NCBI GenBank assembly: GCA_016933575.1
Contig: JAFGAR010000081.1
Span: forward strand, 192,001-256,000
Direction of reading: 5' to 3'
Origin: Candidatus Thorarchaeota archaeon
Lineage (GTDB): Archaea; Asgardarchaeota; Thorarchaeia; Thorarchaeales; Thorarchaeaceae
Length of the DNA stretch: 64,000 bases
Shown here one piece after another: positions 245 to 18,988 of this stretch (the first letter of the stretch is position 1; each line of letters opens with the position of its first letter). Below the pieces are notes generated by a model. The model was given only the letters and a program-made list of their open reading frames with translations, was not told the DNA's origin and did not search any database. A program made the position numbers and the translations under genes.

Positions 245-247
245 TGA

Positions 248-613: not shown

Positions 614-615
614 TG

Positions 616-1109: not shown

Positions 1110-2023
1110 TATTCATCTACCTCCTCATCGAGTGAATCTAGCTCCTCAAGGTCCTCTATGATCTTCTCATCTACTTTCTTGCTAGATTCGACTTCTGGCT
1201 CCTTTTTAGTTTCAACAGGAGCTTCTGATTCCTCCTCCGGAGGTTCAATAGCATCATCAGGAGTAGTAACATCTTCCACGAGCTCTAGACCATCAAGTTC
1301 TTCCAATTCTCGTAGTTCATCGATGTCTGTAATTCCTTCAAGTGATTCCTCCATGACCTCTTCTTCCTCAGGTGTGACCTCCTCGTCTGGTTTTTTGACG
1401 AGTTCAATCTCCTCAGGCTTCTTTGGTTTCGGAGGTTTAATATTAACAACACCAGGCAATTTTGCATCTGGTCTCATAATTCTGACTTTGATTCCGATGA
1501 CTCCTGGTTTCAGGACTGCTCTGTCATCTGCTTCATCAACAAATATGTCCGCAGGTTCTCCAGTTTTGGCAATTGTTCCTTGCTTAAATTTCTGGTAACG
1601 TGCTCGTCTGCTGGAGAGTTTTCCCTTCACAATGATTTCGCACCCAATAGCTCCAGCTCGCATGACTCTTCTTAGAATCCAATATGCCATTCTTCTGAAT
1701 CTAACGCCTCTCTCTAGTTGTCTTGCAAGTCTTGAGGCCATTACTGATGCATCCAACCATGGATTCTCAATCTCACTGACCTCTACCTGTACATTCTCTA
1801 TACCAAACTCATTCTCTAGAATATAGGTCAGTTCTCGAATCTTAGATCCACGTCGACCAATTACAACTCCTGGCCTTGAGGCCTGAATGACCACTTCAGT
1901 TTTCATTGGCATCTTTCTTATCTCAACGCCTCCATATCCGGCAGCGTTGAGTTCTGTTGCCAGGAACTCGTCAATAGCAAGCTTTCGTGAGTTCTGATCT
2001 ATGAAATACTTTACAGCCGACAT
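1109..2023 (-). CDS. rps3: 30S ribosomal protein uS3 with long acidic C-terminal tail
   Basis: KH domain RPGVVIGRRG; GCEIIVKGKL; GVIGIKVRI. Confidence 0.97.
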   Translation of the reverse strand: MSAVKYFIDQNSRKLAIDEFLATELNAAGYGGVEIRKMPMKTEVVIQASRPGVVIGRRGSKIRELTYILENEFGIENVQVEVSEIENPWLDASVMASRLARQLERGVRFRRMAYWILRRVMRAGAIGCEIIVKGKLSSRRARYQKFKQGTIAKTGEPADIFVDEADDRAVLKPGVIGIKVRIMRPDAKLPGVVNIKPPKPKKPEEIELVKKPDEEVTPEEEEVMEESLEGITDIDELRELEELDGLELVEDVTTPDDAIEPPEEESEAPVETKKEPEVESSKKVDEKIIEDLEELDSLDEEVDE

Positions 2024-2487
2024 TATGCCACCTCTTCCAATACAATTTCCACATGTGAAGTCTGTTCAAAGTAGGGTGAACTTCGTCCAAAAGCCCTCTC
2101 GATGTATTTCTTGTAGACTCTGCCTCGATGAGTCACTGAATGAACAATTCGAAGGCGGTCAATGTCCAATCCTTTATTGTCAGCATTGGCCTCCGCGTTT
2201 TTCAAGACCTTCAAAATAATACTTGAGGCTTTCACCGGATGACCACCAGCTACCCATTTCTTCATACCTGGGTGGTGACCACGTTTCTTATAGTGGCGCT
2301 TGTAGGGAATCCATGCCTTTTCTTCGATAACAGCTTCAAGTAACTCTATTGCCTTATCGAGCATCATTCCCCGGATTTCGGTACAGACTTCTCTACACTG
2401 CTTTGGAGAAACCCGCATGTTTCTGCCGCTAGCAATGGCTGTTCTATCTGGGTCAATGCCTATGATTGAATATCCATATGATGGCAT
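2023..2487 (-). CDS. rpl22: 50S ribosomal protein uL22
   Basis: VSPKQCREVC, LKNAEANA and RAFGRSSP motifs. Confidence 0.97.
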   Translation of the reverse strand: MPSYGYSIIGIDPDRTAIASGRNMRVSPKQCREVCTEIRGMMLDKAIELLEAVIEEKAWIPYKRHYKKRGHHPGMKKWVAGGHPVKASSIILKVLKNAEANADNKGLDIDRLRIVHSVTHRGRVYKKYIERAFGRSSPYFEQTSHVEIVLEEVA

Positions 2488-2730
2488 ATTGCCTCACTTC
2501 CACTGTGGGACTTTTCTAAGCTCACATAATTTTGCAAGCCTGCAAGTCAATGTTGCATAATACATCCACTCCAGACCCTACTGGCACACGTCTACAGGCT
2601 GTTCTCGCGAGCAGAACTAAGATGCCTGTACTGCTTCCTTTGAGTCTGAAACAGCTGCTTATCTAATAGCAACAGTCCGCTCTCGGAAATATTTCGCATT
2701 TAAACATTGTCACATGTCCGAGAACGAGAC

Positions 2731-3156
2731 TCACGGATTATCTCCAAACTCTGCGGTGACACGTTTGAGAATAGGAGTTCTTATTGATCTCTTGACTAGC
2801 TCTACTCCCGAATCCGTCAGAGTTCCTTTGATATAATGCACACCTGCAGACTGAATATACACAAATCCCTTTTTCTTCAGATTCTGTAGGCTTCCAAGGA
2901 CGATCTGAGTCAGTTCCTCCTCAGTAACTTCTAGGCCGCCTCCAGGTATCTGTAAGGTCTCACTCATTCTCAGAATATTTCGCATTGAACTAAGTTGTCT
3001 ACGATGGCTATCATATGGATTGGAATACATCCACAATAAAACAATCAAATCTACAACATCTAACCCAATGTCTGGATTCATCTCCAAGGCTTTCTTTGCA
3101 ACAAGTTCGACAATGGGCATTATTACCACGACATTACTGATTTGAAACCTATTCAA
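2731..3156 (-). CDS. hypothetical protein, probable winged-helix (real start may be the internal ATG, MPIVEL)
   Basis: SLQNLKKKGFV...LTDSG resembles a wHTH wing. Confidence 0.6.
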   Translation of the reverse strand: MNRFQISNVVVIMPIVELVAKKALEMNPDIGLDVVDLIVLLWMYSNPYDSHRRQLSSMRNILRMSETLQIPGGGLEVTEEELTQIVLGSLQNLKKKGFVYIQSAGVHYIKGTLTDSGVELVKRSIRTPILKRVTAEFGDNP

Positions 3157-3169
3157 TGAATCGAAGTGC

Positions 3170-3883
3170 TCATACCAATTTCACTAATCTGACACTTGGT
3201 TGAAATATATCGCCACCGTGTATAAGTCGCTCGAGAGAACTATCAACCGAGGCCTCTGATATGCCTAGTTTGCCAAAATGGTGAACAATCTCGTTGATTT
3301 CAAGTACGCCTCCTCTATTTTTCAACAATGCTATAATTTCTGACGAGATATCTCTCTTCGCTGATTCGCTCGATGACTCGTCCTCTTCAATATCAACAAG
3401 TTGCACAGCCCATGGTCTTGGAAAGATGAGCACACCACTATTTGATAGCCCTTCAAGTGTTTTCTCCACCCACTCCCACTTCAGACCATCACTTTCGCAG
3501 AGTTCCTCTAATTTGTCTAGTGAGCAGAGCTTCCCCTGTGCTTCTCTTCCAAGGATGGTCATCAACCTCTTCCTTTTACCCAGCATGGGTGTGTCTTCCT
3601 CTTCACTCTCAATGTCCTCTACCTTGACGGTCTCTTTTGGCATCAATGCACGTACTCTCTCATGGGACCGTTCTACTGCCTCCTTGAACTCATCTCCTCC
3701 CCTTGCAGCATTGAACTCCTTAACAGCGGCTGCCGCTTGTTCCGGGCTATCAAATAATGCACGATTGGCTTTGGTGATATCAATGATAGTGCCGCAATAA
3801 CTACATCTCCTATGTCTTTGACCTACTGGAGCATTTGTGAAGTTCCTACACTTTGGGCACATGAACACGAAGAACTGTTTCAA
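3170..3883 (-). CDS. Zn-ribbon (DUF1922-like) protein with two C-terminal winged-helix-like domains
   Basis: CPKC...CSYC at the N-terminus; C-terminal LERLIHGGDIFQPS resembles an MCM-type wHTH. Confidence 0.65.
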   Translation of the reverse strand: MKQFFVFMCPKCRNFTNAPVGQRHRRCSYCGTIIDITKANRALFDSPEQAAAAVKEFNAARGGDEFKEAVERSHERVRALMPKETVKVEDIESEEEDTPMLGKRKRLMTILGREAQGKLCSLDKLEELCESDGLKWEWVEKTLEGLSNSGVLIFPRPWAVQLVDIEEDESSSESAKRDISSEIIALLKNRGGVLEINEIVHHFGKLGISEASVDSSLERLIHGGDIFQPSVRLVKLV

Positions 3884-3998
3884 AAAATAACACCTACTTC
3901 AATACACTATCTAACGTTGTGGTATTAAAGGTCCCTCTCTCTGGTCAAATGAATATTGTTATATCTCGCACACTCGCGAAACCTCATGGGATTCAGAA

Positions 3999-4223
3999 AT
4001 GACCAAGACCGCCAAGCAAATTCACATCGATGCCAGACTCTGCAAAGGTTGTCACATATGCATCACTGTGTGTCCACATGGTGTCCTTAGGAAGGCTGAG
4101 GTGGTTGATAATCGTGGCTTCTTTCTTCCTGAAGTAGCTGATATCGAAGCCTGTCGTGTTTGCCGACTCTGTGAATTGGAATGTCCCGATTTTGCGATTT
4201 GCGTCGAAGAAATAACAGACTAA
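3999..4223 (+). CDS. 2x[4Fe-4S] ferredoxin (2-oxoacid oxidoreductase delta-subunit-like)
   Basis: Two CxxCxxCxxxCP motifs. Confidence 0.92.
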   Translation: MTKTAKQIHIDARLCKGCHICITVCPHGVLRKAEVVDNRGFFLPEVADIEACRVCRLCELECPDFAICVEEITD

Positions 4224-4315
4224 TCCTTTTGAAACACTCGGTTTCTACGAGCACTAATAATACATGGAATGATATATGTTTAGACACTGACTTGAAGAGT
4301 CTGCAGTCCAAGTAG

Positions 4316-4894
4316 GTGTATGAATTGGAGAATACAGATATCCAGCTCTTGCTGAATATTCGAACAAAACTCAATGAAGAGATTGATCGATTGAAGGATA
4401 TGATTGCTCGTTTAGAGGAGCATATAGAGACACTAGATGAACAGATTGCAAAAGGTAGTTTTGCCACTGCAGATGTTGCAATGACGAAAGGGATTGTGAG
4501 AGAACCTACAACTCCAAGTGAACCTCTCTTTGGGAGCGAGGAGTCTCAGAGTATTGTAATCACCAATAAGGCAGGCAATCTCGAATTGGGAACTATCGAG
4601 ATTATTGAACAGACAATCAGAGTGATTCCAGCTGAACACGCCATTTATGACATCACTCGTGGAGCCTTTGCCAGATTCTTCATGGAGCGAATTCTAGGCA
4701 AATTCCAACAAGATGACCGTCATCGAGTTGAGAATGGAGAAATCGAATGGGATGATGCCTTTGACTTCGAGGTACACGCTGAGGACAATATACTCGAAGA
4801 GATGGTCATCAGAAACTTCGGTGATGATGCTCGACTGAAGGAAATTCAAAATACCCTTCAATGGGCTCTAGAAAAGACATATAGTGCAAGATGA
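4316..4894 (+). CDS. hypothetical protein with N-terminal coiled coil
   Basis: 192 aa ORF with heptad pattern. Confidence 0.7.
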   Translation: MYELENTDIQLLLNIRTKLNEEIDRLKDMIARLEEHIETLDEQIAKGSFATADVAMTKGIVREPTTPSEPLFGSEESQSIVITNKAGNLELGTIEIIEQTIRVIPAEHAIYDITRGAFARFFMERILGKFQQDDRHRVENGEIEWDDAFDFEVHAEDNILEEMVIRNFGDDARLKEIQNTLQWALEKTYSAR

Positions 4895-5005
4895 TTCCAT
4901 GATGGCGCCCTTGAGAACTCACCCTAACTTCCTTTGCAAAAGAATATAACTTACATCTCTCTATTTTTGGAAGTAGAAAGTAGAGAGTTCCTTGGAGTGG
5001 CATAG

Positions 5006-5620
5006 ATGGCTTCCCACAATATTGACAACGATCTTGCAGTTAATCCTCAAGTCATTGTGGAAACCGTTCGTAATGCACATGAGTTCTTTTCTGAACACAG
5101 AATCGATGAACGTTATGAGAAAATGGCCCTAGACCTCGTGCGGAGATATGTTTCACAGGAAGGAAACCCTCGTGAGGAGGATCCCTTCTTTGCTGCCTCC
5201 CTCTATATGGTTACTAGACACCCTTGGAGTCATCCCAATCCCCTTACAAAGACTGAGTTTGCTAACAAGCTGAATATGAAGGAGTCTAGCTTGGAATGGT
5301 ACACAGATACAATAGGCATGAAACTTGGATTTTCAATCTTTCATGATTCCTCTCAACTACCCTTCTTTTTAGACCCGCAAGGAACCATTGCTAGTGTCGT
5401 TGATTCCATTGTAATATCAAATGTTGGCGAAGAGGTAGTCAGTAGTATTGTAAGTCGAAATGTTCTCTCACCTGACCAACTTGCAGAAAAAATCGTAGAT
5501 CAACTATGCAGTGTTGTCAAGATTATCCCTGCCGTATTTGAACAGGAACTCTATAGTTTGGTTCGTAAGAAAATCGAGGTGGAGAGTAAACGGCTCTCCG
5601 ACCAATTGATGCGGCGTTAA
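5006..5620 (+). CDS. hypothetical protein with a single TFIIB/cyclin-like repeat
   Basis: FFAASLYMVTR...PLTKTEFANKLNMKESSL parallels the TFB repeat AATLYAACR...PRPLDEVA. Confidence 0.55.
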   Translation: MASHNIDNDLAVNPQVIVETVRNAHEFFSEHRIDERYEKMALDLVRRYVSQEGNPREEDPFFAASLYMVTRHPWSHPNPLTKTEFANKLNMKESSLEWYTDTIGMKLGFSIFHDSSQLPFFLDPQGTIASVVDSIVISNVGEEVVSSIVSRNVLSPDQLAEKIVDQLCSVVKIIPAVFEQELYSLVRKKIEVESKRLSDQLMRR

Positions 5621-5625
5621 GTTGT

Positions 5626-5931
5626 CTATGAATTCTCTGGTTGCAGTGTCACTTCTTCAACAAGTCTCTTTCCTGCAACAACTTGATCAATCGAGTGGAT
5701 CACAGCTCCTGCCTGCTCAAGAATATCCTTGATGCTATCATAGCTAAGATCGTCTCCTTCAAGAGTGATTGTGATACTCTCAGTATTCTGGTCCACTTCT
5801 TTCAGGGTGATGTTGAGTCCACTTACCCGATCATCTCGGGTCATCATTAAAGCAAGGTCCGTCAAACGTGGACTGTGCGGTTTCAAAACGTCTAGTACTA
5901 TTCTTCGTATGCCTTGAGGCAATAATCGCAT
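5626..5931 (-). CDS. DUF211 family protein
   Basis: IRRIVLDVLKPH...GAVIHSIDQVVAG signature. Confidence 0.9.
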   Translation of the reverse strand: MRLLPQGIRRIVLDVLKPHSPRLTDLALMMTRDDRVSGLNITLKEVDQNTESITITLEGDDLSYDSIKDILEQAGAVIHSIDQVVAGKRLVEEVTLQPENS

Positions 5932-6158
5932 TCCCCATAATTGACCATTTGGCCTTATTTTCTACAGATGTTGCCACTGGAATTTGCTTGTTAAACCTTA
6001 CGACAACGGAACAAATACGTTTTTCCATTATTTTTATCGTCGCCCTGTATTCTGGCGCCAATAAGTGTGACAAGAGTGGGAAGCTCCCCAAGGCTTATAT
6101 CAACATCCAGATGAATTCTATGTTGTACCCTTCTTAGGGGTACGCCGGGAAAATATAG

Positions 6159-6491
6159 GTGGACGCTTGCTTGACATTGAAACAGGAGAGACTTACTAGA
6201 CAAACCAAGGACATTCCTTCAACGAAGGACTTGCCTAATATCCGATCCATCAAATACGAGTCAGGCTTGACCATCGATATTGATGTTGCAGATTTCAAAG
6301 GTCATCCTTTATGGAACATTCTCATAGAAACAGCTCGTAATAATCCTCTCTTTCCTGGAAGATCTGGTTATGCTCATAACCATATCATCCCGGAGAATCC
6401 TAAGATAACCCCGAAAGAGCTAGCCAGCAAACTGTCAATCACTGTGGGTGAGGCATTGGCAATTCTAGAGGGTTATGAAAAAACTGGTTAA
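6159..6491 (+). CDS. hypothetical protein with C-terminal HTH-like segment
   Basis: ITPKELASKLSITVGEALAIL. Confidence 0.55.
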   Translation: MDACLTLKQERLTRQTKDIPSTKDLPNIRSIKYESGLTIDIDVADFKGHPLWNILIETARNNPLFPGRSGYAHNHIIPENPKITPKELASKLSITVGEALAILEGYEKTG

Positions 6492-6550
6492 ACTTGCCAC
6501 AAGTCTTCATTTTTAAGCTATATCTCTCTAGGGTATAATGGATTGATATC

Positions 6551-7630
6551 ATGAGTGAATCGACCGGATTCAGAGATGCTAGATATGCTCACGCGCTCAA
6601 GAGAGAGATAGAGACTCTCAGCAATGAAAAGAAGATACGGATTGTTCATGTATGTGGCACACATGAAGACACCATTAGTCAACATGGAATTCGTTCATTA
6701 CTTCCAGAGAGCATGAGTCTAGTTGCTGGGCCTGGATGTCCTGTCTGTGTCTGTGCAGCTGAAGATGTAGATATGGCAATCGAGCTAGCTCGTCAAGGTC
6801 ATATTGTAACATCTTTCGGTGACATGATTCGTGTGCCAGCAACAGATACATCCTTGGCAAAGGAACGAACAAAGGGTGCTGATGTTCGTATTGTCTATGG
6901 GGCAAATGATGCAGTAGAGATAGCAAAGAAGAATCCCGACAAAGAAGTTGTCTTTGTAGGAGCTGGCTTTGAGACTACTGCTCCTACAATCGCTATTGAG
7001 CTATTACGAAAACCGCCTTCTAACTTCTCGATTCTCACATCACTGAAAGTCATTCCCCCCGCAATGGAGCTGCTTGTGAAGATTGAAGGATTTGCAGTCG
7101 ATGGATTCATCACTCCCGGTCATGTAGCGACCATAATAGGAACTGAAGCATTCAAGCCCTTTGCAGAGAAACATGGAGTGCCTTGTGTGACTGCTGGATT
7201 TGAGCCGTTAGATGTCCTTGAGGCAATTCGTATGATATTGATTCAGATTGCTGAAGGTCGAGCCACCTCTGAGAACGAATATACACGAGTTGTGCGCCTG
7301 GAGGGTAACCTTGCGGCACAGAAAGCACTAGAACAAGCCTTTAGGATTGGTGATGTACCATGGAGGGGTCTTGGGATCATTGAAAGCTCAGGGTACTTCA
7401 TTAGAGATGAGTTTTCTGAGCATGATGCTCGCAAGAGATTTGATTTTCCAGAAATAGAATCTATTGACATTCTTCCTGGATGTAGGTGTCACGAAGTAAT
7501 TCTGGGAATGGTCGATCCTGTTGAATGTCCACTTTTTGGAAAACGGTGCACACCCGAAGACCCCTATGGTCCCTGTATGGTAGGCCATGAAGGAACCTGT
7601 CGAATTCGTCACGAGTTTCAAGGAATCTGA
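6551..7630 (+). CDS. hypD: [NiFe]-hydrogenase maturation protein HypD
   Basis: VCGTH, GPGCPVCV, GFETT, PGHV and GPCMVGHEGTC motifs. Confidence 0.97.
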   Translation: MSESTGFRDARYAHALKREIETLSNEKKIRIVHVCGTHEDTISQHGIRSLLPESMSLVAGPGCPVCVCAAEDVDMAIELARQGHIVTSFGDMIRVPATDTSLAKERTKGADVRIVYGANDAVEIAKKNPDKEVVFVGAGFETTAPTIAIELLRKPPSNFSILTSLKVIPPAMELLVKIEGFAVDGFITPGHVATIIGTEAFKPFAEKHGVPCVTAGFEPLDVLEAIRMILIQIAEGRATSENEYTRVVRLEGNLAAQKALEQAFRIGDVPWRGLGIIESSGYFIRDEFSEHDARKRFDFPEIESIDILPGCRCHEVILGMVDPVECPLFGKRCTPEDPYGPCMVGHEGTCRIRHEFQGI

Positions 7631-7638
7631 AAAAGGTA

Positions 7639-8292
7639 TCAGTGAGTTCTATGTCTCTTTTCAGCCATCTTCAGGTCTCTCTGCGTGTTAAGGTTCGTAA
7701 AGGTCTCTAACTCTGAGTCAAACTGCTTCAAGGTCTCTGTAGAAATATACAACACATGTTGTATCTGTTTCAATAGATCACTCATTCGATACTGACCACT
7801 CTCTATAATCTCGAGTCCCTTTGAGTAGGCATGCTCAGCCAAGTAGACTGAGTGTATTGGTTCAATATACCCTGATGGCCAGATTGGTACTACTGCTCCA
7901 TGCCCTGGAGACAATCGTATGAGTACCTTGAGTAATTCTGGTTGTGTGAATGGTGCATCCACTGGCAATAGAAGTGTGTACTGTGTTGAGGTATATTCAA
8001 ATGCCGTTAGTGCTCCGTTCAGAGCTGATTTTATACTGCCATCTGGGTCAGTAACAACTCGTACATTCTTGACCAGTGGTTTGATTTTGGTAGCTTGTTC
8101 TTCCTCTGAAACCACTATGAGGAGTTCTGGTGAGATCGTACGAGCTATTTCTAACATGTGGGCAATTAGTGGTTTCTGATGAAATGTAGTTGTGAACTTA
8201 TCTGCTCCAAATCGTTTCGAGGCGCCTCCTGCCAAGATTGCAACAGTCACATCTTGCATCTTTTCTAAGACCTCGATATGATTTGAAGACAC
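7639..8292 (-). CDS. mobA: molybdenum cofactor guanylyltransferase
   Basis: ILAGGASKRFGADK, PVDAP, EPIHSVY and FTNLNT motifs. Confidence 0.9.
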   Translation of the reverse strand: MSSNHIEVLEKMQDVTVAILAGGASKRFGADKFTTTFHQKPLIAHMLEIARTISPELLIVVSEEEQATKIKPLVKNVRVVTDPDGSIKSALNGALTAFEYTSTQYTLLLPVDAPFTQPELLKVLIRLSPGHGAVVPIWPSGYIEPIHSVYLAEHAYSKGLEIIESGQYRMSDLLKQIQHVLYISTETLKQFDSELETFTNLNTQRDLKMAEKRHRTH

Positions 8293-8300
8293 CCACCTTA

Positions 8301-10271
8301 TCAGCTCTCTTCTCGAGGGGTAAGATACTCAGTAATCATTGCAGCAATCTGTCCGTCTGTGTAATGTTGTGACGATATTGCACCACTGGCGCAGGTCGAT
8401 GTGCAGGTCCCACATCCCTTGCATAGAGCTGGATTAACCTCTGCAAATCCTCTCTCATTTAGCGCAATCGCATTGAATGGACAGACTGAGATACAGACTT
8501 GACATCCTGCGCACTTATCCTCGTCCACGATAGAGTAGTAAGGTTCCACGTTGATCTTCCCTTTGCCCATTAGAGCCATTGCTCCAGCAGCTGCAGCCTT
8601 TGCTTGAGCTACAGTGTCTGGAATGTCTTTGGGTCCCTGTGCCATTCCTGCTACAAATATACCATCGTTGAACGAGTCTACCGGACGGAGTTTGGGATGT
8701 GCCTCAAGTAAGAAACCATCAGCTGAAACACTAAGATTGAGTATGTGTGCAATCTGTTTTGCAGACTCCGGTGCCACGACACCTGTAGATAATACGACGA
8801 GGTCAACATCCTTCAGCTCGATGGGTTTTCCAAGTAGTGTGTCCTCACCTCTCACAGTGAGGGACATCGTCTTGTCGTTCTGAAATACTTCACCCACTCT
8901 ACCTCTGATGAAAGTTACACCCGCTGCGGCTGTACTCTCATAGAACTCCTCGTAACCCTTTCCAAAGGTCCTGAGGTCGATATAGAAGATGTACACATCA
9001 ATACCCAACTTATCACGAATCATTCTAGCTTGTTTGATGGCAGTCATGCAACATACACGAGAGCAGTATTTGTTCGTCAGTTCATCACGGCTTCCTACAC
9101 ATTGTACGTAGACCATCTTCTTTGGTTCTTTGAGGTCTGAGGGTCTCACCATATGACCCTGTGTAGGTCCTGCAGAACTTAGCATTCGCTCGACTTCACC
9201 GATATTGACAACATTTGGAAACTCACCATATCCGTATTCTGGCTTTTTCGTAGCATCAAACAAATCGAATCCTGTAGCAACAATAATGGTACCTACTTCA
9301 ATCTCGATTATCTTCTCATGATCATCGTAATTGATTGCCTCAGCATCGCATTTGTCCTTGCACTTTCCACATCTAACTGCATCTACACCAAGACAATTCT
9401 CCATATCGAGGAGATAGGCTGATGGGACTGCTTGCGCAAATGGGATATAGATTGCTTTTCTGTAGGAGAGTTGGGCTTCAAACTCTGCGGGGACATCCAC
9501 TGGGCAGACACTACTGCAGTCTCCACATGATGTGCACTTTGCAACGTCTACATACCTCGGATGCTGTCGAATCTTCACCTTGAAATTACCAACATAGCCA
9601 TCAACCTCATCCACCTCAGCAAAGGTCAATAGTTCGATATTGGGATGAGCCCCGATCTCTGCCATTCTAGGAGTCAGAATACATGAACTGCAATCAAGAG
9701 TGGGGAATGTCTTATCCCAACGTGCCATCTTTCCACCAATGCTTGGTTCTTTCTCGACCATATAGACCTTGAAGCCAGCATTGGCAAGATCAAGGGCTGC
9801 AGAGATACCCGCAATTCCTGCTCCTACAATCAGGGTGGACTTCTTGATTGAGACCTCTGGTTCTTCTAATGGTTCTAAGAGTCTTGCTCGTGCTACAGCC
9901 ATGCGAATCAGGTCAATGGCTTTCTCAGTTGCTGCGGCAGGATCATCTGAATGAATCCAGGAATCATGTTCTCTGATGTTAGCAATCTCCAAGAGAAATG
10001 GATTGAGTCCAACCTCACGCATCACTTGTCTGAAGGTAGGCTCATGCATTCTTGGAGAGCATGCGGCAACAACGACGCCATCTAATCTACTATTCTTAAT
10101 GTGGTCCTTCACTATCTGCTGACCCGGTTTTGAACAGACATATTTGTAGTCATCAATAACTTCGACATTAGGAAGCTTAGCAATGGCTTCCTTGACTTTC
10201 TCAATATCAACAACACCAGCTATGTTACTTCCACAGTGGCAGATGAAGACACCAATCTTTCTATCAGACAT
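8301..10271 (-). CDS. hdrA: heterodisulfide reductase subunit A (Cys form)
   Basis: CHCGSNI, ACSPRMHE, GAGIAG, KTFPTLDCSSCIL, CVGSR and CSRVCC motifs plus ferredoxin domains. Confidence 0.96.
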   Translation of the reverse strand: MSDRKIGVFICHCGSNIAGVVDIEKVKEAIAKLPNVEVIDDYKYVCSKPGQQIVKDHIKNSRLDGVVVAACSPRMHEPTFRQVMREVGLNPFLLEIANIREHDSWIHSDDPAAATEKAIDLIRMAVARARLLEPLEEPEVSIKKSTLIVGAGIAGISAALDLANAGFKVYMVEKEPSIGGKMARWDKTFPTLDCSSCILTPRMAEIGAHPNIELLTFAEVDEVDGYVGNFKVKIRQHPRYVDVAKCTSCGDCSSVCPVDVPAEFEAQLSYRKAIYIPFAQAVPSAYLLDMENCLGVDAVRCGKCKDKCDAEAINYDDHEKIIEIEVGTIIVATGFDLFDATKKPEYGYGEFPNVVNIGEVERMLSSAGPTQGHMVRPSDLKEPKKMVYVQCVGSRDELTNKYCSRVCCMTAIKQARMIRDKLGIDVYIFYIDLRTFGKGYEEFYESTAAAGVTFIRGRVGEVFQNDKTMSLTVRGEDTLLGKPIELKDVDLVVLSTGVVAPESAKQIAHILNLSVSADGFLLEAHPKLRPVDSFNDGIFVAGMAQGPKDIPDTVAQAKAAAAGAMALMGKGKINVEPYYSIVDEDKCAGCQVCISVCPFNAIALNERGFAEVNPALCKGCGTCTSTCASGAISSQHYTDGQIAAMITEYLTPREES

Positions 10272-10456
10272 CTAAGGTTCCTCGGATTCAAGCATAGTGA
10301 TATCAATGCGAATGGATACAGGCGCCGTTGAATGTAGGCAATAAAGTGTTTCGGGAGCTGGCATAGCTCTTTAAGAACATTCTCTGAGGTGAGAATTCCT
10401 ACCAAAAGCGTAAAAAGCGCATTTCACGGCACACTCAGCTACCCGGAGGCTATACT

Positions 10457-11230
10457 TTGCCTGGAAAGGTCTGGAACTATATAATCGATAAGCTAACAAA
10501 AGAAGGCGCCCTTCATTTCTCTTTACTGGACCCTGACCCTCTTTCCACAACCATCGAGGAAGTGGTTGAGCTGGCTGAGCTAGCAGAGAAGGCAGGGAGT
10601 GACGCAATAATGATAGGTGGAAGCACAGTCTTTGGTGTGATTGATGATGCAGTTGCAAAGATCACAGAAGCAGTAGATATTCCAACCATTCTCTTTCCCG
10701 GTAATATCACGGGGGTTTCAGAGCATGCTGATGCAATGTTCTTCATGACCCTACTGAATAGCACCAATCCCTATTGGATTATTGGTGCTCAGGCTCTTGC
10801 TGCTCCAAAGATCAAACTTGTTGGCATAGAGACTATTCCAATGGCGTATCTTATGGTGGCTCCTGGAAAGACAGCTGCATGGGTCGGAGATGCAAAGCCC
10901 TTTCTCCGTGACAAACCCAAGATACCTGCAATGTATGCTATTGCTGCAGAGTTACTTGGCATGAAACTCGTGTATCTTGAAGCAGGAAGTGGTGCTGAAG
11001 GCGGTGGAGTTCCTCCTGAGATGATTTCTGCTGTTTCCAAGTTCATTGACATACCTGTTATCACCGGTGGCGGTTTCAATGATGCAGAATCTGTTGTCCG
11101 AGCAGTTGATGCTGGAGCTTCCATTGTTGTCCAAGGAACCTACCTCGAGAAAAATGTCAAAAAAGATAAGGGCGAGGGACTCGCGAAGATTATAAAATCG
11201 TTGAAAGAAGCAGGCGCCAAGAGAGTTTAA
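10457..11230 (+). CDS. geranylgeranylglyceryl phosphate synthase (PcrB family)
   Basis: LLDPD, IGGS, LFPG, YLEAGSGA and GGG motifs. Confidence 0.93.
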   Translation: MPGKVWNYIIDKLTKEGALHFSLLDPDPLSTTIEEVVELAELAEKAGSDAIMIGGSTVFGVIDDAVAKITEAVDIPTILFPGNITGVSEHADAMFFMTLLNSTNPYWIIGAQALAAPKIKLVGIETIPMAYLMVAPGKTAAWVGDAKPFLRDKPKIPAMYAIAAELLGMKLVYLEAGSGAEGGGVPPEMISAVSKFIDIPVITGGGFNDAESVVRAVDAGASIVVQGTYLEKNVKKDKGEGLAKIIKSLKEAGAKRV

Positions 11231-12852: not shown

Positions 12853-13830
12853 TTGGACCGCATCCGTAGTACTGATGATAAGAAGGGAGCTGCCGAATCT
12901 TCCATTGAACTAATTTGTTGCCCAGAGTGTAAGTCTACTACCGTAGTTGAGGATACCACTCGAGGTGAACGAGTGTGCGGCGGTTGTGGTCTTGTACTAT
13001 CCGACCATCGTATTGATACCGGAGCCGAATGGCGTGCATTCAGTACTGAAGAGAGTGACTCTCGAAGTAGAGTTGGAGCACCACTTCGCTATACCGTGCA
13101 TGATAAGGGACTCTCAACAGTTATTGACTGGAGAGATCGGGACACCTCTGGGAAGAAGTTGAGTCCGACACGAAGGTCGGAGATCTATCGATTGCGTAAA
13201 TGGCAGATACGGTCTAGAGTACATTCGAGCATGGATCGTAATCTTGCACAGGCTATGTCCGAACTCGAACGATTGTCCTCACAGCTTGGAATCCCTGAAC
13301 CAATTCGTGAGCTTGCAGCACTTCTCTACAGAAAATCTATCATCAAGAAACTAGTCCGTGGACGAAGTATTGAAGCTATGGTGGCAGCAACGCTCTATGC
13401 TGCATGCAGGATACGGGAAAAACCCCGTCCTCTTGACGAGGTTGCTGATGCTTCGCGTATCGATAGAAAGAAATTGGGACAGTGTTATCGACTTCTTCTA
13501 AGAAATCTAGCAATCAAGATCCCACTCTCTAATCCAGTCGCTTACATCTCCCGTTTTGCATCACAACTCGAACTCTCGAGCCCTGTGCAGCTCCGGACCG
13601 TTGAGATTTTGCAAAGAAGTCGCGATATTGGTCTCACAATAGGTCGTGACCCGCTTGGTCTTGCAGCGGCAGCAATTTACGTCGCCTCTATCATGTTAGA
13701 TGAACGCCGGACACAACGAGAGATTGCTGAGGTCGCAAGGGTCACTGAAGTCACAGTACGCAATCGCTACAAAGAGATCGTAAAGAAGCTCAGTATTGAT
13801 TCCATGGGTCTTGAACCTATAGAACACTGA
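12853..13830 (+). CDS. tfb: transcription initiation factor IIB (paralog 1, TTG start)
   Basis: Zn ribbon CPEC/CGGC, EWRAF, two cyclin repeats, TEVTVRNRYKE; SD GGAGG at 12841. Confidence 0.97.
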   Translation: MDRIRSTDDKKGAAESSIELICCPECKSTTVVEDTTRGERVCGGCGLVLSDHRIDTGAEWRAFSTEESDSRSRVGAPLRYTVHDKGLSTVIDWRDRDTSGKKLSPTRRSEIYRLRKWQIRSRVHSSMDRNLAQAMSELERLSSQLGIPEPIRELAALLYRKSIIKKLVRGRSIEAMVAATLYAACRIREKPRPLDEVADASRIDRKKLGQCYRLLLRNLAIKIPLSNPVAYISRFASQLELSSPVQLRTVEILQRSRDIGLTIGRDPLGLAAAAIYVASIMLDERRTQREIAEVARVTEVTVRNRYKEIVKKLSIDSMGLEPIEH

Positions 13831-13886: not shown

Positions 13887-14099
13887 CTACCTTCTTCCAG
13901 TCTGTTGGAATGACCAATCGACCTGAACCATTTGTTCTGGGAATCCAAGCTTTGACAAGACGTCTCCAATGACCCCTCTATGATCTCCTTGCAGTTCAAT
14001 ATGGCCATGTTTTGCGGCTCCTCCGCAAGCAAGCTTGGCTTTCAGTTTTGTAGCCAAATCACCAAGGTCAATATTCTTGTCAAAACCTTCAAGAATTAT
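13887..14099 (-). pseudogene. start-less 3' fragment (70 codons + TAG) of aIF1/SUI1
   Basis: Manual translation IILEGFDKNIDLGDLATKLKAKLACGGAAKHGHIELQGDHRGVIGDVLSKLGFPEQMVQVDWSFQQTGRR*. 58/70 aa identical to the C-terminus of 16905..17249. Confidence 0.93.
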
Positions 14100-14102
14100 G
14101 TT

Positions 14103-15227
14103 TTAGTTTCTAAAGAGTCCTAATGACATTTGGATGTGTTTTTTCATTTCTTCTGACATGCATATTACTTCAGATTGATACTTCTTGAATTCATCACGGG
14201 ATGAGAAATCCAATGTGTGTACAGTAAAACCTGATTTTTTAAAAGCATCAAAGATGGTCTGTACATTCTGTTTTGAGTAATTATTAACAATCTTTCTATC
14301 CAAATTCTTAAGGATTTCATAGCCGTATGCTGTGTAAAGAAACGTATCCCACTGGGGTCTGTTTCTAAGAACAGGTAACTTGATTCGCTCCATCTCTTCT
14401 TGTCTTATCTCTAGAATTAATTTACTCAGTCTTGCACATTCTGCATTCTCAAGGAAATTGTCATTAATGACTATTCCCACAGTAGACCTTCCAGTTTCCA
14501 CTTGGTCACACATTGTTTCAATAACAACAGGTTCGAGAGTTCTCTTTACATTTTCAATACTTGTGTCTGGAGGTATCTCAAGAATAAGTTCCAGCAAATC
14601 CTTTTCTAATAACCCATATTGTCCAAGACTCAATCCGTTTAAGACACTAGTTTGAGCAGTGATATGTGATGTTCTTCCTTTCACAACCTCTAGCTGGGTA
14701 TGAATAGGTTCCCAAGCCTGTATATTCTCTAATGGCTTATATTTTATCTTGTAAGGTGACCCTCTTGTGAATCCCCAGAAGTCATTTGTGTCAAGCCAAG
14801 TACTCACATCACTTCCTATTTGAAAATAAACTGGGTCATCCTCTGATACGTGTTGGAGTGATTCAAAGAGTGGTGTGATATCCCAAGGCATACTCAGAAG
14901 TCCACAAACTGTCACATCAATACTTCTAACATTCTTGAGTCTGGCCAAGGGGCATAGACTCATCTCTGTTAAGTATTGAAATCCATTTAGTTTTAATGAC
15001 CTAAAATTAGTGAAGTCGGCGAGTCCGGAGAGGTCAATAGAAACGTATTTCGGTTCATTATAGCCCTGCATACTAGCTCCATACAGTTCGATATAGTCCT
15101 TTTGATATCCTCGTAAAATTTCCTCTACTTCCGACTGGTGAATCTCTTCTTGTTCGGTTTTAAATTTCAGATATGCCTTTGAACTCATTACGTTGATTTT
15201 TACTGCATCAGTCAATTTAAGACTCAC
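14103..15227 (-). CDS. LRR-like protein
   Basis: IDLSGLADFTNFRSLKL / LCPLARLKNVRSIDV repeats; visibly AT-rich DNA. Confidence 0.65.
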   Translation of the reverse strand: MSLKLTDAVKINVMSSKAYLKFKTEQEEIHQSEVEEILRGYQKDYIELYGASMQGYNEPKYVSIDLSGLADFTNFRSLKLNGFQYLTEMSLCPLARLKNVRSIDVTVCGLLSMPWDITPLFESLQHVSEDDPVYFQIGSDVSTWLDTNDFWGFTRGSPYKIKYKPLENIQAWEPIHTQLEVVKGRTSHITAQTSVLNGLSLGQYGLLEKDLLELILEIPPDTSIENVKRTLEPVVIETMCDQVETGRSTVGIVINDNFLENAECARLSKLILEIRQEEMERIKLPVLRNRPQWDTFLYTAYGYEILKNLDRKIVNNYSKQNVQTIFDAFKKSGFTVHTLDFSSRDEFKKYQSEVICMSEEMKKHIQMSLGLFRN

Positions 15228-15277
15228 TGTGATTGTTGATTTATCATCTCCTTGATGAATATTCGAGTGAAGCTAGA

Positions 15278-16051
15278 TTAATCATGCAGACTTCCAAAGG
15301 CGTACTGGTCACGAGATGCTGCGAAGTTAATTGCCAGTAATGGTTCATCTGTTGAGCTTGTGCTGAACACATTGGGCTTATCGAGGCCGCTATCAGTGAG
15401 CGACCATCCCACCATCTCAGTATAGCCGAAGTTGACATCATGGGGAACTGAGAGCTTCCCATTCATGCCCTCAGGGAGGTCTACGAACACATTGAGGATT
15501 GTAAAGAAGGAGAGTTCTACATTCAGACCTGTATCCGTGAAGTTCACGTTCTCTGTGAAGATGATGTTGCAGATGCCTTCATTGGTACTGATTTTGACGT
15601 CCTGACCTGCAAGCTCTGCCCCATTGTCATAAATTAGTGTAACATTCAGATTACGACCATCAATGAAGACCTGATAGTAGGTGGCAGTTCCAAGGATCAC
15701 ATCAATAGATGCTATCTTGTAATCACCCATTCCATCAAGGACTAGATGGTAAGCATCTGGATCGTATGATGGCTCGTAGAGAGAGTAGTGATGATGCATT
15801 CCGGGTTCATACTGAACCACATCTATGGAATAGAGAAGATTGGGATTGTCCACAAAGGTGATGGTGACGTTTGTCGATGGTGCGCGGAGGGCTCTTAGGA
15901 ATAACACAGCATGTTTGGTACTTCCAGCAGGATAGGCGCACTCGTAGTGGAAATGAGTCTGAACCAAGGGGATACCTACGAACACCACCAGACCCACCAC
16001 TACAATGACTCCCACACTGATTGAGACCATTTTTCTTCGTTCCATTCTCAC
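15278..16051 (-). CDS. membrane-anchored or exported beta-rich hypothetical protein
   Basis: Basic N-terminus and one TM helix (ISVGVIVVVGLVVFVGIPLV), then a beta-strand-rich body. Confidence 0.75.
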   Translation of the reverse strand: MRMERRKMVSISVGVIVVVGLVVFVGIPLVQTHFHYECAYPAGSTKHAVLFLRALRAPSTNVTITFVDNPNLLYSIDVVQYEPGMHHHYSLYEPSYDPDAYHLVLDGMGDYKIASIDVILGTATYYQVFIDGRNLNVTLIYDNGAELAGQDVKISTNEGICNIIFTENVNFTDTGLNVELSFFTILNVFVDLPEGMNGKLSVPHDVNFGYTEMVGWSLTDSGLDKPNVFSTSSTDEPLLAINFAASRDQYAFGSLHD

Positions 16052-16083
16052 TCACCTCTCACTTCTCGTGTTCGAATTTATGT

Positions 16084-16791
16084 TCATCGCATATTCCCCA
16101 GCATGACAGGGATACGCATAACGAGCATAGCCATGTTCAGACTTAATGCAATTGAGGGAAGTATCAGTCTAGCCTTACTTGCTTGTATCCTTGTTGAACC
16201 GTCTTCCAAGGTGACAAGCGAGATTCCTCTCCTCCCCATTGCCCGAAGCAGTCCACTGGTGATGATGGAGAGCGTCATGGCAGTGAAGAAGACCTCTCCG
16301 CCGCCTATTGGTTGTGCGCTCTTATCATACCGGAGAACATTATCGAAGGCCATCTCAAAGATGACCTCGCCAACCAGTTCAAAATACTCTTTGACTCCAC
16401 GATAGAGTAACGAGCCCAGCTCTCGGGCTGAACTCATCTGAGAGATCTTCTTCAGGGTACTACTGAAGCCGAGGTCAAGCAGGTCATCTATCGTTGTCCC
16501 GAATCGACTGAGAACACTGCTTCCAGTACGTCGTAGCCCTGCACCTAACGCTCCAAGGTCTGCAAAGTTCTCTGCAAGGACTCCACCGAACCTGTTCCCT
16601 GCCCACCTAGCAAATCTTCCAAGACCCTTCGCTGCGGCCCCAATGCCAAAGGAGATACCGTTTGATAATGCTTCGGTCAGGATGAGGTTCCATCCTTGGT
16701 CAGAAGTGATACCCCAGATACTGAAGTTACCGATGTAGTTCCTGTCAACTCCAAGAGCCTGCATGGCACCAAGCAGGATGTGGTCGAACAT
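16084..16791 (-). CDS. hypothetical Gly/Ala-rich amphipathic protein, possibly the C-terminal remnant of a larger protein
   Basis: 235 aa ORF with GISFGIGAAAKGLG and hydrophobic C-terminal segments. Confidence 0.6.
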   Translation of the reverse strand: MFDHILLGAMQALGVDRNYIGNFSIWGITSDQGWNLILTEALSNGISFGIGAAAKGLGRFARWAGNRFGGVLAENFADLGALGAGLRRTGSSVLSRFGTTIDDLLDLGFSSTLKKISQMSSARELGSLLYRGVKEYFELVGEVIFEMAFDNVLRYDKSAQPIGGGEVFFTAMTLSIITSGLLRAMGRRGISLVTLEDGSTRIQASKARLILPSIALSLNMAMLVMRIPVMLGNMR

Positions 16792-16904
16792 GGGCCACGA
16801 TTTTTGTCCACCCCTCCTAGTCCCCCGACCTCCACCCCCACCACTCCCCTTTTTCCTTTTTTGTTTCTAAGCATGTATAATTGAAACACGTTCTCGAATT
16901 GATT

Positions 16905-17249
16905 CTATCTTCTTCCAGTCTGCTGGAATGACCAATCTATGTTGATTGCTTCTTTTGGAAATCCGAGTTTTTCCAGAACTTCTCCTATATTTGCCCTATG
17001 GTCTCCCTGCAGCTCGATATGACCGTGTTTTGCAGCTCCTCCACAGGCAAGCTTGGCTTTCAACTTCGTGGCAAGGTCGTTTAGATCGATATTTTTATCG
17101 AAGCCTTCTAAGATCAAAGTCAAACGACCCCATTTACGGCGCTCGACAGTCACATTAATTCTTGCCTCTTCCTGAGCGATTGTTTCGCACACACAGAGAT
17201 CCTGAGGCAAACCACAATTCGGGCAGATTCCGCCTTCGTCGTTACTCAC
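16905..17249 (-). CDS. sui1: translation initiation factor aIF1 (SUI1), GTG start
   Basis: CPNCGLPQDLCVCE, LKAKLACGG and IELQGDHR motifs. Confidence 0.96.
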   Translation of the reverse strand: MSNDEGGICPNCGLPQDLCVCETIAQEEARINVTVERRKWGRLTLILEGFDKNIDLNDLATKLKAKLACGGAAKHGHIELQGDHRANIGEVLEKLGFPKEAINIDWSFQQTGRR

Positions 17250-17395: not shown

Positions 17396-18988
17396 ATGAT
17401 GTCCGACTCTGTACTCATCATCGATGCATTAAGCGCTGGGTCTGGGAAACGAACCAGTTCTAGGGATTCTATCGGTTGTGGACCCAGAAGCGTAGCAGGG
17501 ATTTTTGAGAAGCATGGATTTGACTGCAGAATCTATAGGGCTGAAGAGATTCTTGAGAAAAAGAGTATAATGAGAAAGTTCGATCACATTGCTATCAGCT
17601 CTATGACCATGGACATGCCAGCTACTAGGAAGATCATGAACCTGTGGCGGAGCGGGGCTCGACATTCTGGTAGAGCTATTATTGGAGGTCCTATCGCTTC
17701 AGATTCTCGGGTGATTATAAAATTAGGTGCAGATCTCCTCGTTATTGGTGAAGGTGAGGCTACACTCGAGGAGTTGATTGAGCGGGACTATTTCCATGAG
17801 AAGATCGAGTTGTTGGACGTTCTTGGAATTGCTTTTGCAATCAATGGAAGAGTAGCATATACAAGGCCTCGTGAATTCATATCATCAGAATCTCTCTCAT
17901 CTGATTTTCTACCATCCACCACACGAATACTTGACTACAAGGCGTATCAAGCAAGTAAGGTCTATGTGGAGGTAACTCGGGGTTGCTCCAATTTTAGAAG
18001 GACTCGACTTCCCCTGTTAAATGGAAGTCAATGTTCTGAATGTGGAAATTGCGATGCTGACGAACCCGAAACACGTTTAGATTGCCCAGAAGATATTCCG
18101 CCTGGTTGTGGATTCTGTAGCGTTCCCGGAACGTGGGGCCCTCCAAGAAGCAGGTCTGCAGTGAGTATTGTGAGAGAGATCAAAGAACTTCTGGACTTAG
18201 GGGTCCATAAAATTGTCCTCGAGTCTCCTGGTTTCCTAGACTACTTCCGTGGATCCGAACCCCTCACAGATCCCTGTCATCCACCAGCTAATCTGTCTGC
18301 TATCAAGGATTTACTAGGGCAGATCAATAATCTGCCTCAAGTGATTGATGGAACTGCTCACATTACCATTGAGAACATGAAAGCGTGCCTGTTTACTGAT
18401 GAGGTTGCACAGATGTTAGTTGAGTCAATGATGTCGAGTTCTCCAAATATTGGTCTTGAGACCGGTTCTGAAAAGCACATGCATCAGATCGGTAAATGTG
18501 GAAATCCGCAGGATGTCCTTTCTGCTGTGAAAATTGCGAGTAAGTATGGAATGAAACCCTTTGTGTATTTCATCTATGGTCTCCCTGGAGAGGATGAAGA
18601 CAGTGTGAACGATTCTATTACCATGATGCGGCAAATCAGTGAGGCTGGAGCTGAGAGAATAATTCTGTATGGCTTTAGATCCTTGCCTGGGTCTGCCTTT
18701 GAGAACTACCCCTCCTCCTCAACCAGTAATCCACTTGGGGCTATACTCAGGAGGGAAGCTGATAGAATCAATCGAGTGAAGAAGGATGACTACATCGGAA
18801 AGATTGTTCGTGGTATTGCAGCTGAACAATCCTGGGTCAATAGAGGATACACCATGGTCTATCCCTTGGAAGAAGGTCCCCTCATGACAGTGCCTGGCGG
18901 CTTTTCTGCAGGAACACTCCTGAACATTCGAATAACCAAGGTTCTTAGTAGCGGCCTCCTTGAGGGAGTGGCCCTTCAATCATCCTAA
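17396..18988 (+). CDS. radical SAM protein with B12-binding-like N-terminus and TRAM-like C-terminus
   Basis: EVTRGC...PPGCGFC (motif split by a Cys-rich insert), GLETGS, YGLPGE. Confidence 0.85.
   Translation: MMSDSVLIIDALSAGSGKRTSSRDSIGCGPRSVAGIFEKHGFDCRIYRAEEILEKKSIMRKFDHIAISSMTMDMPATRKIMNLWRSGARHSGRAIIGGPIASDSRVIIKLGADLLVIGEGEATLEELIERDYFHEKIELLDVLGIAFAINGRVAYTRPREFISSESLSSDFLPSTTRILDYKAYQASKVYVEVTRGCSNFRRTRLPLLNGSQCSECGNCDADEPETRLDCPEDIPPGCGFCSVPGTWGPPRSRSAVSIVREIKELLDLGVHKIVLESPGFLDYFRGSEPLTDPCHPPANLSAIKDLLGQINNLPQVIDGTAHITIENMKACLFTDEVAQMLVESMMSSSPNIGLETGSEKHMHQIGKCGNPQDVLSAVKIASKYGMKPFVYFIYGLPGEDEDSVNDSITMMRQISEAGAERIILYGFRSLPGSAFENYPSSSTSNPLGAILRREADRINRVKKDDYIGKIVRGIAAEQSWVNRGYTMVYPLEEGPLMTVPGGFSAGTLLNIRITKVLSSGLLEGVALQSS

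Follow-up and report, generated by a model that had tools for sequence, protein, structure and literature searches.

The window analysed here, a 64,000-nucleotide stretch of a 265-kb contig from a Candidatus Thorarchaeota (Asgard archaea) metagenome bin (3.47 Mb, 85.5% complete, 6.9% contaminated), carries the gene of the archaeal translation initiation factor 1 (aIF1/SUI1) together with a start-less second copy of its 3' end. From the stop of the intact gene (16905) to the first homologous codon of this downstream copy (14099) is 2.8 kb, and a 3,018-bp segment at this locus is an insertion relative to the empty sites of related genomes. The 3' part inside the intact gene is designated R1 and the downstream fragment R2. 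The arrangement was probably generated by Campbell-type integration of a gene-restoring element at a defined site, codon 44/45, by means of a recombinase that has since been lost or that acted in trans; the intact aIF1/SUI1 gene would, on that reading, probably combine a 5' part of the host with a 3' part that arrived from outside.

Insertion relative to the empty site

R1 and R2 agree at 58/70 residues (82.9%) and at 72–74% of the bases over 212 nt, and both are free of stops and frameshifts. Their longest identical run is 16 nt, and no 31-mer is common to both. The intact gene and R2 are the only SUI1 copies in the 3.47-Mb assembly. The original prediction, which had described R2 from the sequence as a start-less copy of the last 70 SUI1 codons in the same orientation as the intact gene, is confirmed on this point by both Pfam and tblastn matches.

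In the relatives, the B12-binding radical-SAM gene and SUI1 are followed directly by the convergent tfb gene, which encodes a homolog of TFIIB. This contiguous arrangement, with 30–130 nt between the stops of SUI1 and tfb, exists in 20 same-genus loci (the genomes whose contigs reach far enough), in 18/20 loci taken from 15 further genera of the family, and in 36 Thorarchaeota contigs from Joint Genome Institute (JGI) metagenomes. The tfb orthologs situated directly downstream of SUI1 in the relatives are 84–91% identical at the protein level. A locus without tfb next to SUI1 (G389) is rearranged. Furthermore, a second internal SUI1 match is found in this genome alone among 86 family genomes, and none of ~75 related loci shows the duplication without cargo. 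The empty site that the original prediction had proposed to look for in relatives therefore exists across all three sets of loci, and two complete tandem SUI1 genes, which would have pointed to simple duplication and decay, were seen in none of the relatives examined.

The junctions are also supported by an independent assembler. Logan contigs of a run holding 96% of the region's 31-mers were used, with 56% of the run's contigs read; this run probably represents the same data as the bin, and the comparison thus checks the assembler and not the sample. One contig spans the junction between the 5' part of SUI1 and R1 (17047 to beyond 18000) and another spans the junction between R2 and the neighbouring open reading frame (ORF) orfC (14015–15867), both with 0 mismatches; the contigs read cover these two junctions, and not the one between R1 and orfA at ~16905. 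These contigs cross both of the places near 14100 and 17115 at which read mapping had been proposed. Misassembly by repeat collapse is not expected, because no run common to R1 and R2 exceeds 16 nt, and a k-mer chimera is unlikely, because the two sides of each junction share no sequence and the repeats no 31-mer. Two metatranscriptome runs of the same study yielded no RNA match to the region.

Native and incoming 3' ends

R2 is identical to 21 genus orthologs at 70.5–81.9% of the bases, the genus pairwise mean being 76.9%. It carries consensus residues throughout, and it is followed by the native intergenic sequence and the end of tfb as in the relatives. Compared with R2, R1 is an outlier. 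Its identity to the genus is 65.7–75.7% of the bases, and it contains changes that are unique among ~75 sequences, including T45L and G82A at otherwise invariant positions and PKEAINID in place of PEEMVQVD. In three trees, the branch of R1 has lengths of 0.36, 0.66, and 0.96, against 0.08, 0.16, and 0.23 for R2, a three- to five-fold difference. Codons 1–44 of the intact gene, by contrast, are typical of the genus, with 77–86% base identity against a genus mean of 84.8%. Analysing the parts separately, as the original prediction had suggested, thus yields a long branch for R1, a short branch for R2, and a 5' part that is typical by identity.

Between R1 and R2, the nonsynonymous divergence (dN) is 0.125 and the synonymous divergence (dS) is saturated, so that both must have evolved as coding sequences for nearly all of their separate history, in agreement with the earlier view that two copies with so many synonymous differences were under selection until recently. 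For the same reason, R1 is not the product of an in-situ duplicate that decayed. Because the asymmetry is opposite to that of an in-situ duplication, the expressed 3' end is assigned an origin elsewhere and R2 is assigned as the resident end. R2 apparently represents the native 3' end, displaced recently enough for no decay to have set in, and is presumably a young pseudogene, and R1 appears to be a foreign, incoming 3' end. This is the polarity that had been predicted, with the resident end displaced next to tfb and the gene restored by the incoming allele.

The best match to R1 in 5.8 billion proteins is 81% identical over 70 residues, and no match possesses the KEAINID stretch, so that no donor was found in this set. 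In codons 46–63, only 2 of the 17 codons that encode the same residue in R1 and R2 are identical, a proportion lower than in 99% of between-genus pairs. Selected recoding beside the junction was considered for this segment and set aside, since the segment was picked after the data had been seen and the corresponding repeats of the Loki-type genome G196 (described below) are only 10% diverged; the few shared codons are treated as old divergence.

Junction and repeat structure

Up to and including codon 44 (ACT), the intact gene is host-typical; it becomes aberrant at codon 45, where TTG stands instead of ACN. Simultaneously, the homology of R2 begins at codon 45/46, and the switch point and the 5' edge of R2 coincide within 3 nt. 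A single reciprocal crossover at the border of the homology carried by the element would produce such a coincidence, whereas a homologous crossover inside the repeat or two independent joints would not; the position thus argues against ordinary homologous recombination. At the window junction, 2–5 bases are identical, and the longest identities are located elsewhere in the repeat.

R1 itself is a mosaic. Codons 45–63 and 81–104 are ~61% identical to R2 and ~64% identical to every relative, codons 64–80 are 86% identical to R2, and the last 33 nt match R2 at 31/33 positions, including three hypervariable codons common to no relative. The patches of high identity are assumed to be short gene-conversion tracts. 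On its other side, R2 is situated directly after the TAA of the 374-codon orfC and in frame with it, as had been noticed previously. The chance of an in-frame arrangement at a random junction is one in three, and chance is most simply taken as the explanation, as the original prediction had allowed.

Recurrence in other Asgard genomes

Versions with other or larger cargo, for which the original prediction had proposed a search, exist in several loci; that the larger ones might bear an integrase was not borne out in the 8.8 kb of the L059 version or in the complete insertion of G196. In the JGI contigs L058–L060, orfA, orfB, and orfC have orthologs with identities of 56, 41, and 58%, respectively, the counterpart of orfA forming the end of a 459-aa protein. 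These orthologs are located beside a SUI1 3' fragment whose homology begins at codon 45/46. Upstream are an ABC transporter and a copy of an insertion sequence (IS), and all four contigs that extend the L059 element end at the same IS copy. L092, which belongs to a same-genus organism and comes from the same sample series, contains an intact SUI1 followed by the three small genes that follow the fragment in L059, and is probably the matching empty site. The block formed by the SUI1 3' part and the three small genes had been considered as borne by the element; this was dropped, L092 as the empty site of a related species being simpler. In L057, from an NCBI Thorarchaeota bin, a fragment from ~codon 50 adjoins tfb, with different DNA upstream, and the contig ends there. 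A 16-nt hairpin motif near the L057 and L058 fragments was discarded, as it is absent from the window even with 3 mismatches.

The clearest second case is G196, a Loki-type genome from a different family of the phylum. Its locus is distributed over two contigs, C144 and C91, of which the first ends and the second begins inside one ABC ATPase gene, with an exact overlap of 55 nt. Between the intact SUI1 and the start-less copy is an insertion of 12,435 nt, measured from repeat start to repeat start, in the order intact SUI1, ABC-2 permease, ABC ATPase, 113-aa ORF, 2884-aa ORF (no Pfam domain), 126-aa Zn-ribbon ORF, and start-less SUI1. The congeners G193 and G194 have the empty site PHP–SUI1–MBL–VTT. 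The start-less copy begins at the residue homologous to Thorarchaeota codon 45. The two repeats are 89% identical in the coding sequence and 95% identical over the 59 nt past the stop. The in-gene copy has ~10 derived positions, against ~4 in the displaced copy, which keeps the states of the relatives; it is of the derived type from the 6th base of the repeat, placing the crossover within the first 5 nt, and CTTAT is shared there. At the level of sequence, therefore, insertion at the same codon recurs in two Asgard classes.

Among ten Loki-type genomes with a second SUI1 match, eight matches are full-length genes on other contigs, one (G189) is a frameshifted whole copy, and the fragment geometry exists only in G196. 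The G189 copy (G189:C390; L181 1450–1830) is nearly full-length and is located on a contig different from that of the intact gene. Three further candidates for displaced fragments were rejected: P0057 is full-length but has a non-canonical start, P0058 is truncated by a contig end, and P0059 is situated in the ribosomal operon of another archaeon.

Integration model and alternative explanations

In the most probable scheme, a circular accessory DNA carrying its own aIF1 codons 45–114 would have recombined once with the chromosome at codon 44/45. R1 would thereby have completed the essential gene, and the resident end R2 would have been pushed 3 kb downstream, beside tfb, as a start-less relic. 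The crossover would lie at the 5' edge of the shared sequence, as with an integrase whose attP restores the target in the geometry of e14 or phage 21 in icd, and the site-specific catalysis would be due to a recombinase that either was lost or acts in trans. Since orfA is truncated at its 5' side and the L059 version is larger, the 3-kb islet has the appearance of a larger element reduced by deletion. The overall reading of the original prediction, that an element integrated mid-gene and restored the gene, is supported, and each of its predictions that could be checked held.

Several observations weigh against this scheme. Searches of the 3-kb insert with Pfam, PHROGs, and PADLOC revealed no integrase or recombinase family, as the original prediction had read from the sequence; the 8.8 kb of the L059 version contain no integrase and only an IS transposase, and the complete 12.4-kb insertion of G196 contains no recombinase. 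The 85%-complete genome has a single match to PF00589 (Phage_integrase), probably XerA, on contig C189, and none to PF00239 (resolvase). No excised or empty-site variant was found in the sample (assembled contigs of one DNA run, 56% read), and no free form with a SUI1 piece was found among IMG/VR viral contigs, INPHARED phages, or PLSDB plasmids. An identical core longer than ~5 nt is not visible at the window crossover, the L057 fragment starts ~5 codons later than the others, and the patches of high R1/R2 identity need an extra assumption, such as later short-patch gene conversion.

A bolder extension can be entertained only tentatively. These islands might constitute an undescribed class of integrase-less Asgard islands that take aIF1 codon 45 as a dedicated attachment point and bring along a transferable aIF1 C-terminal cassette. 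Their movement would depend on a recombination activity that belongs to none of the known tyrosine, serine, DDE, or Cas1 families and that would be host-encoded or reside in the unannotated giant ORFs. If this were true, each arrival or loss of an island would swap the C-terminal two thirds of the start-codon proofreading factor and could shift stringency between strains.

Integrase-free homologous recombination is unlikely as the origin of the arrangement. Here, a looped-out circle with one SUI1 3' copy and cargo would have re-inserted through one homologous crossover within the ~210-nt homology, or a ready-made island (SUI1, cargo, and fragment) would have been imported from a related donor by double crossover via the conserved flanks (radical-SAM gene and SUI1 5' part on one side, tfb on the other). 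The lack of a recombinase in all three versions fits this explanation, the well-matched patches in codons 64–80 and in the last 33 nt resemble conversion or crossover tracts, and the G196 repeats are similar enough for such an exchange. However, recombination within the homology predicts a crossover inside the repeat, whereas in both complete cases the in-gene copy already has the incoming type at the first informative base of the repeat (codon 45 for the window and the 6th base for G196), and the window repeats are only 72% identical, with no common run beyond 16 nt. Import via the flanks is feasible, given that the flanking genes are highly conserved across the family; it accounts for spread, but not for the origin of the duplicated geometry. 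Homologous recombination may well be the route by which the island spreads between relatives.

A one-off illegitimate or homology-facilitated illegitimate event, in which linear foreign DNA was anchored in SUI1 and its other end was joined by microhomology, is improbable. The scarcity of common bases at the junction, without a long identical core, and the missing recombinase agree with such an event, as do other untidy SUI1–tfb rearrangements in relatives (L110, G351, and G020, described below). Nevertheless, the codon 45/46 boundary recurs in the window, in L059, and in G196, which belongs to a different Asgard class, with unrelated DNA sequence and cargo. The crossover and the joint would in addition be independent, yet coincide within 3 nt, and the joint is perfectly in register, leaving the essential gene uninterrupted.

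Partial tandem duplication of the SUI1 3' end in situ, followed by cargo insertion and divergence in place, is highly improbable. R1 and R2 do appear as weak sisters on 207 and 162 columns (support 87/78 and 92/64), and the features ILEGF and QQTGRR, both unusual, are common to them; the sister grouping, however, is lost when the divergent segments alone are used. With dS saturated, the start-less copy would be expected to have decayed, yet it has neither stop nor frameshift and almost no unusual residues, and it is the expressed copy that evolves faster, the reverse of what a gene and a pseudogene evolving side by side should show. An intermediate with duplication and no cargo is also missing from the ~75 related loci.

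A chimeric assembly of two organisms or strains at SUI1, which the contamination and incompleteness of the metagenome bin, the breaks of Logan contigs inside both SUI1 copies, and the breaks of relatives' contigs at SUI1 (G016, G019, G011, and G352) might suggest, is scarcely credible, since a k-mer join cannot create the decisive junctions, which the independent assembler reproduced, and the same geometry exists in G196 and L059 from other samples.

Comparison with known systems

The closest precedent for the aIF1 insert is e14 or phage 21 in icd. In E. coli, e14 is flanked by icd and by icdC, a C-terminal pseudogene (PMC13626634, citing Hill et al. 1989). According to the same source, the insertion lies within the 3' part of an essential-type protein gene, the incoming 3' end completes the gene, and the resident 3' end persists on the distal side of the element as a C-terminal pseudogene without a start; the incoming copy differs mainly at synonymous sites and at a few residues, likewise as observed here (PMC13626634). 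The window locus agrees with this type in the insertion relative to the relatives' empty site, in the element-derived in-gene copy with a native distal copy (same polarity in G196), and in a crossover that falls at the 5' border of the sequence common to both copies. No tyrosine or serine integrase was found beside an att site. There are also significant differences. e14 and phage 21 have their own integrase and are excised on SOS induction, whereas no recombinase is seen in the aIF1 insert; the aIF1 repeats are far more diverged (72%, dS saturated) and longer (70 codons); and the host is an Asgard archaeon, the target is aIF1, and the cargo consists of giant-protein and membrane-protein genes instead of phage genes. 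Because the defining integrase is missing, the insert is best described as probably working like e14-type elements, and not as a member of that family.

Archaeal mobile DNA at the 3' ends of protein genes has been documented: 14 of 68 thaumarchaeal integrated elements are located in 3'-distal parts of protein genes, and casposons are located in aEF-2 (PMC6563490). The likeness extends to the choice of a translation factor and to the comparison of occupied with empty sites. Those elements, however, utilize short att sites or target duplications (8–25 bp; ~15 bp for casposons) and encode an integrase or casposase (PMC6563490), whereas the duplicated segment of the aIF1 insert is 213–245 bp of coding sequence from mid-gene. 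Neither an integrase, nor Cas1, nor terminal inverted repeats were found in the insert; the Cas1-type casposase, terminal inverted repeats, and short target duplication that characterize a casposon are thus not present, the flanking repeat being 213 nt of direct coding sequence.

Within the same phylum, the Heimdallarchaeal element HeimV1 at tRNA-Gly and the Atabeyarchaeia elements at an 11-bp AT-rich motif also occupy a defined site and were found by comparison (PMC8813620, PMC11529989). They differ in that tRNA genes or a short intergenic motif are the targets and tyrosine integrases are encoded. A term search of the two sources returned no mention of an initiation-factor gene as a target. 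The searchable literature contains no report of gene-end-replacing integration for aIF1 or for Asgard archaea, consistent with the earlier statement that no element is known to target aIF1; protein-gene 3' ends, including that of aEF-2, were already on record (PMC6563490). Compared with the known systems, the insert is distinguished by the mid-gene target in aIF1 (codon 45), the long and diverged replaced segment, the lack of a recognisable recombinase even in a complete copy, and the use of the same codon in two Asgard classes.

A further likeness concerns the cargo, which consists of a C-terminal module of giant proteins and a small membrane protein and has a modular look. In polymorphic toxin loci such as Rhs and contact-dependent inhibition (CDI) systems, a new 3' end arrives with a partner gene and the old 3' end is left downstream as a start-less orphan, a displacement thought to run on homology within the toxin gene. 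The displaced gene there is the toxin gene itself, with a conserved pre-toxin segment ahead of the module and an immunity gene after it, whereas here the displaced module belongs to aIF1, a housekeeping translation factor, so that the locus is not a polymorphic-toxin orphan array. No toxin or immunity family was detected for orfA or orfB in Pfam, PHROGs, PADLOC, or Atlas.

Cargo and locus organization

The positions of the repeats, the cargo genes, and the native flanks are given in Table 1.

Table 1. Features of the aIF1/SUI1 locus in the window and of the second locus in G196
Feature	Position	Strand	Basis or remark
Intact aIF1/SUI1 gene	16905–17249	-	114 codons, GTG start; Pfam SUI1 E=1.2e-16; full-length alignment to 21 same-genus orthologs
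aIF1 codons 1–44, host-type 5' part	17118–17249	-	Base identity to genus 77–86%
R1, aIF1 codons 45–114 and stop; putative incoming 3' end now completing the gene	16905–17117	-	Outlier sequence, long branch
G-rich spacer, 113 nt, between R1 stop and orfA	16792–16904	-	Read from sequence
orfA, 235 aa, cargo	16084–16791	-	Free-standing C-terminal module of giant Thorarchaeota proteins
orfB, 257 aa, cargo	15278–16051	-	Predicted membrane-anchored toast-rack/DUF4097/LiaF-like protein
orfC, 374 aa, cargo	14103–15227	-	Large family-specific paralog family; leucine-rich repeat (LRR)-like by weak evidence
R2, start-less aIF1 codons 45–114 and stop	13887–14099	-	Pfam SUI1 E=1.4e-11; tblastn E=3.5e-37 in genome search
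Whole insert, 3,018 bp relative to the relatives' empty site	14100–17117	.	Boundaries from alignment
tfb (TFIIB homolog), convergent neighbour, native downstream flank	12853–13830	+	Pfam TFIIB, Zn_Ribbon_TF
B12-binding radical-SAM gene, divergent neighbour, native upstream flank	17396–18988	+	Pfam Radical_SAM, B12-binding; syntenic in all relatives
G196 locus	L179 (G196:C91) 1–11000; L180 (G196:C144) 6800–8785		Joined by overlap

The cargo is foreign in composition, with a G+C content of 36–39% over orfC and 52–53% over orfA against ~45% in the flanks. None of the three cargo ORFs has a significant family in Pfam, PHROGs, or PADLOC, and Atlas provides leads only for orfA and orfC. The homologs of orfA constitute the C-terminal 235 residues of proteins from 459 to 9987 aa, the matches of the genome search lying in open frames of 583–9987 aa, and orfA shares 56% identity with the C-terminal part of the 459-aa protein of L058/L059. 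Judged by these alignments, the orfA of the window has lost its 5' part, and the spacer between R1 and orfA is a probable breakpoint inside a formerly longer orfA gene.

The orfA–orfB pair is kept in at least 6 other Thorarchaeota loci (L048–L052 and L056), with a decayed copy in G001. orfB possesses structural matches in the Atlas, with TM scores of 0.66–0.70 to LiaF, Toast_rack, and DUF4097 clusters, and is modelled as a membrane-anchored protein with a predicted fold of this kind. For orfC, matches exist in 62 of the 85 other family genomes at 21–33% identity, and an ortholog with 58% identity adjoins the SUI1 fragment in L058–L060; its LRR signals are weak and serve as leads only. The pairing of a giant-protein C-terminal module with a membrane protein (window 15278–16791) resembles effector-tip plus partner modules.

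Implications for mobile DNA and start-codon fidelity in Asgard archaea

Asgard archaea are the closest prokaryotic relatives of eukaryotes, and little of their mobile DNA has been charted. A few bacterial cases, such as icd, are known in which integration replaces an essential gene's end. The same codon in two groups, the lack of a recombinase even in the 12.4-kb copy, and the giant- and membrane-protein cargo point to a conserved way of moving accessory genes in Asgards. Start-less SUI1 pieces and contig breaks at SUI1 can serve as markers of such islands. In addition, the 3' two thirds of aIF1, a gene that serves as a phylogenetic marker, can be foreign.

The chimeric aIF1 differs from the native type in 12 of the 70 C-terminal residues, two of them at positions conserved in all relatives, and the chimeric C-terminus could have an effect on start-codon stringency. 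Strains with and without the island would hence provide a natural test of start-codon fidelity, a matter of interest in organisms whose own aIF1 gene begins with a weak start codon.

Other rearrangements near SUI1 in relatives

The SUI1–tfb interval shows signs of instability in several relatives, namely G019, G011, G020, L110, and G351. In the JGI contig Ga0114923_10000357 (L110 6343–6679), a duplicated tfb 3' fragment (~46–116 nt) and ~220 nt of unrelated DNA are situated between SUI1 and tfb; tfb may thus undergo the same kind of 3'-end displacement. In G351 (L091 8518–8750, G351:C47), SUI1 is followed by a ~80-nt remnant of the tfb 3' end and then by a TPR-protein gene, and the locus is rearranged. 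Two contigs of G019, C145 and C151 (L032 1–80 and L034 9250–9370), have the last 72 nt of SUI1 in common and split exactly at the stop codon. The branch without tfb begins TAACTCC, and the same sequence is located at the contig end of G011:C167 (L035 end), from another species, just past the SUI1 stop; this pattern may reflect another polymorphic insertion directly after SUI1. In G020 (L036 2440–2490, G020:C387), the SUI1–tfb gap is unusually long at ~400 nt, and a 49-nt piece 28 nt past the SUI1 stop matches the 3' end of L059's second orfA-type gene at 88% identity and looks like a relic of earlier cargo.

Other irregularities concern SUI1 itself. In G015, a same-genus genome that is 90% complete, codon 100 of the sole SUI1 is an in-frame TAG (G015:C183; L022 / L094 3792–4130), which could be a sequencing error, a pseudogene, or a case of read-through. 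On another contig of this genome (G015:C106; L093 1280–1500), a truncated small-GTPase-like ORF with the P-loop GPSLGGKTT has an end resembling the last dozen bases of SUI1; next come homologs of the three small genes located after the SUI1 fragment of L059. In L187 (9830–10170) and L188, SUI1 was called as 55 aa only, because the full-length frame has no ATG, GTG, or TTG start.

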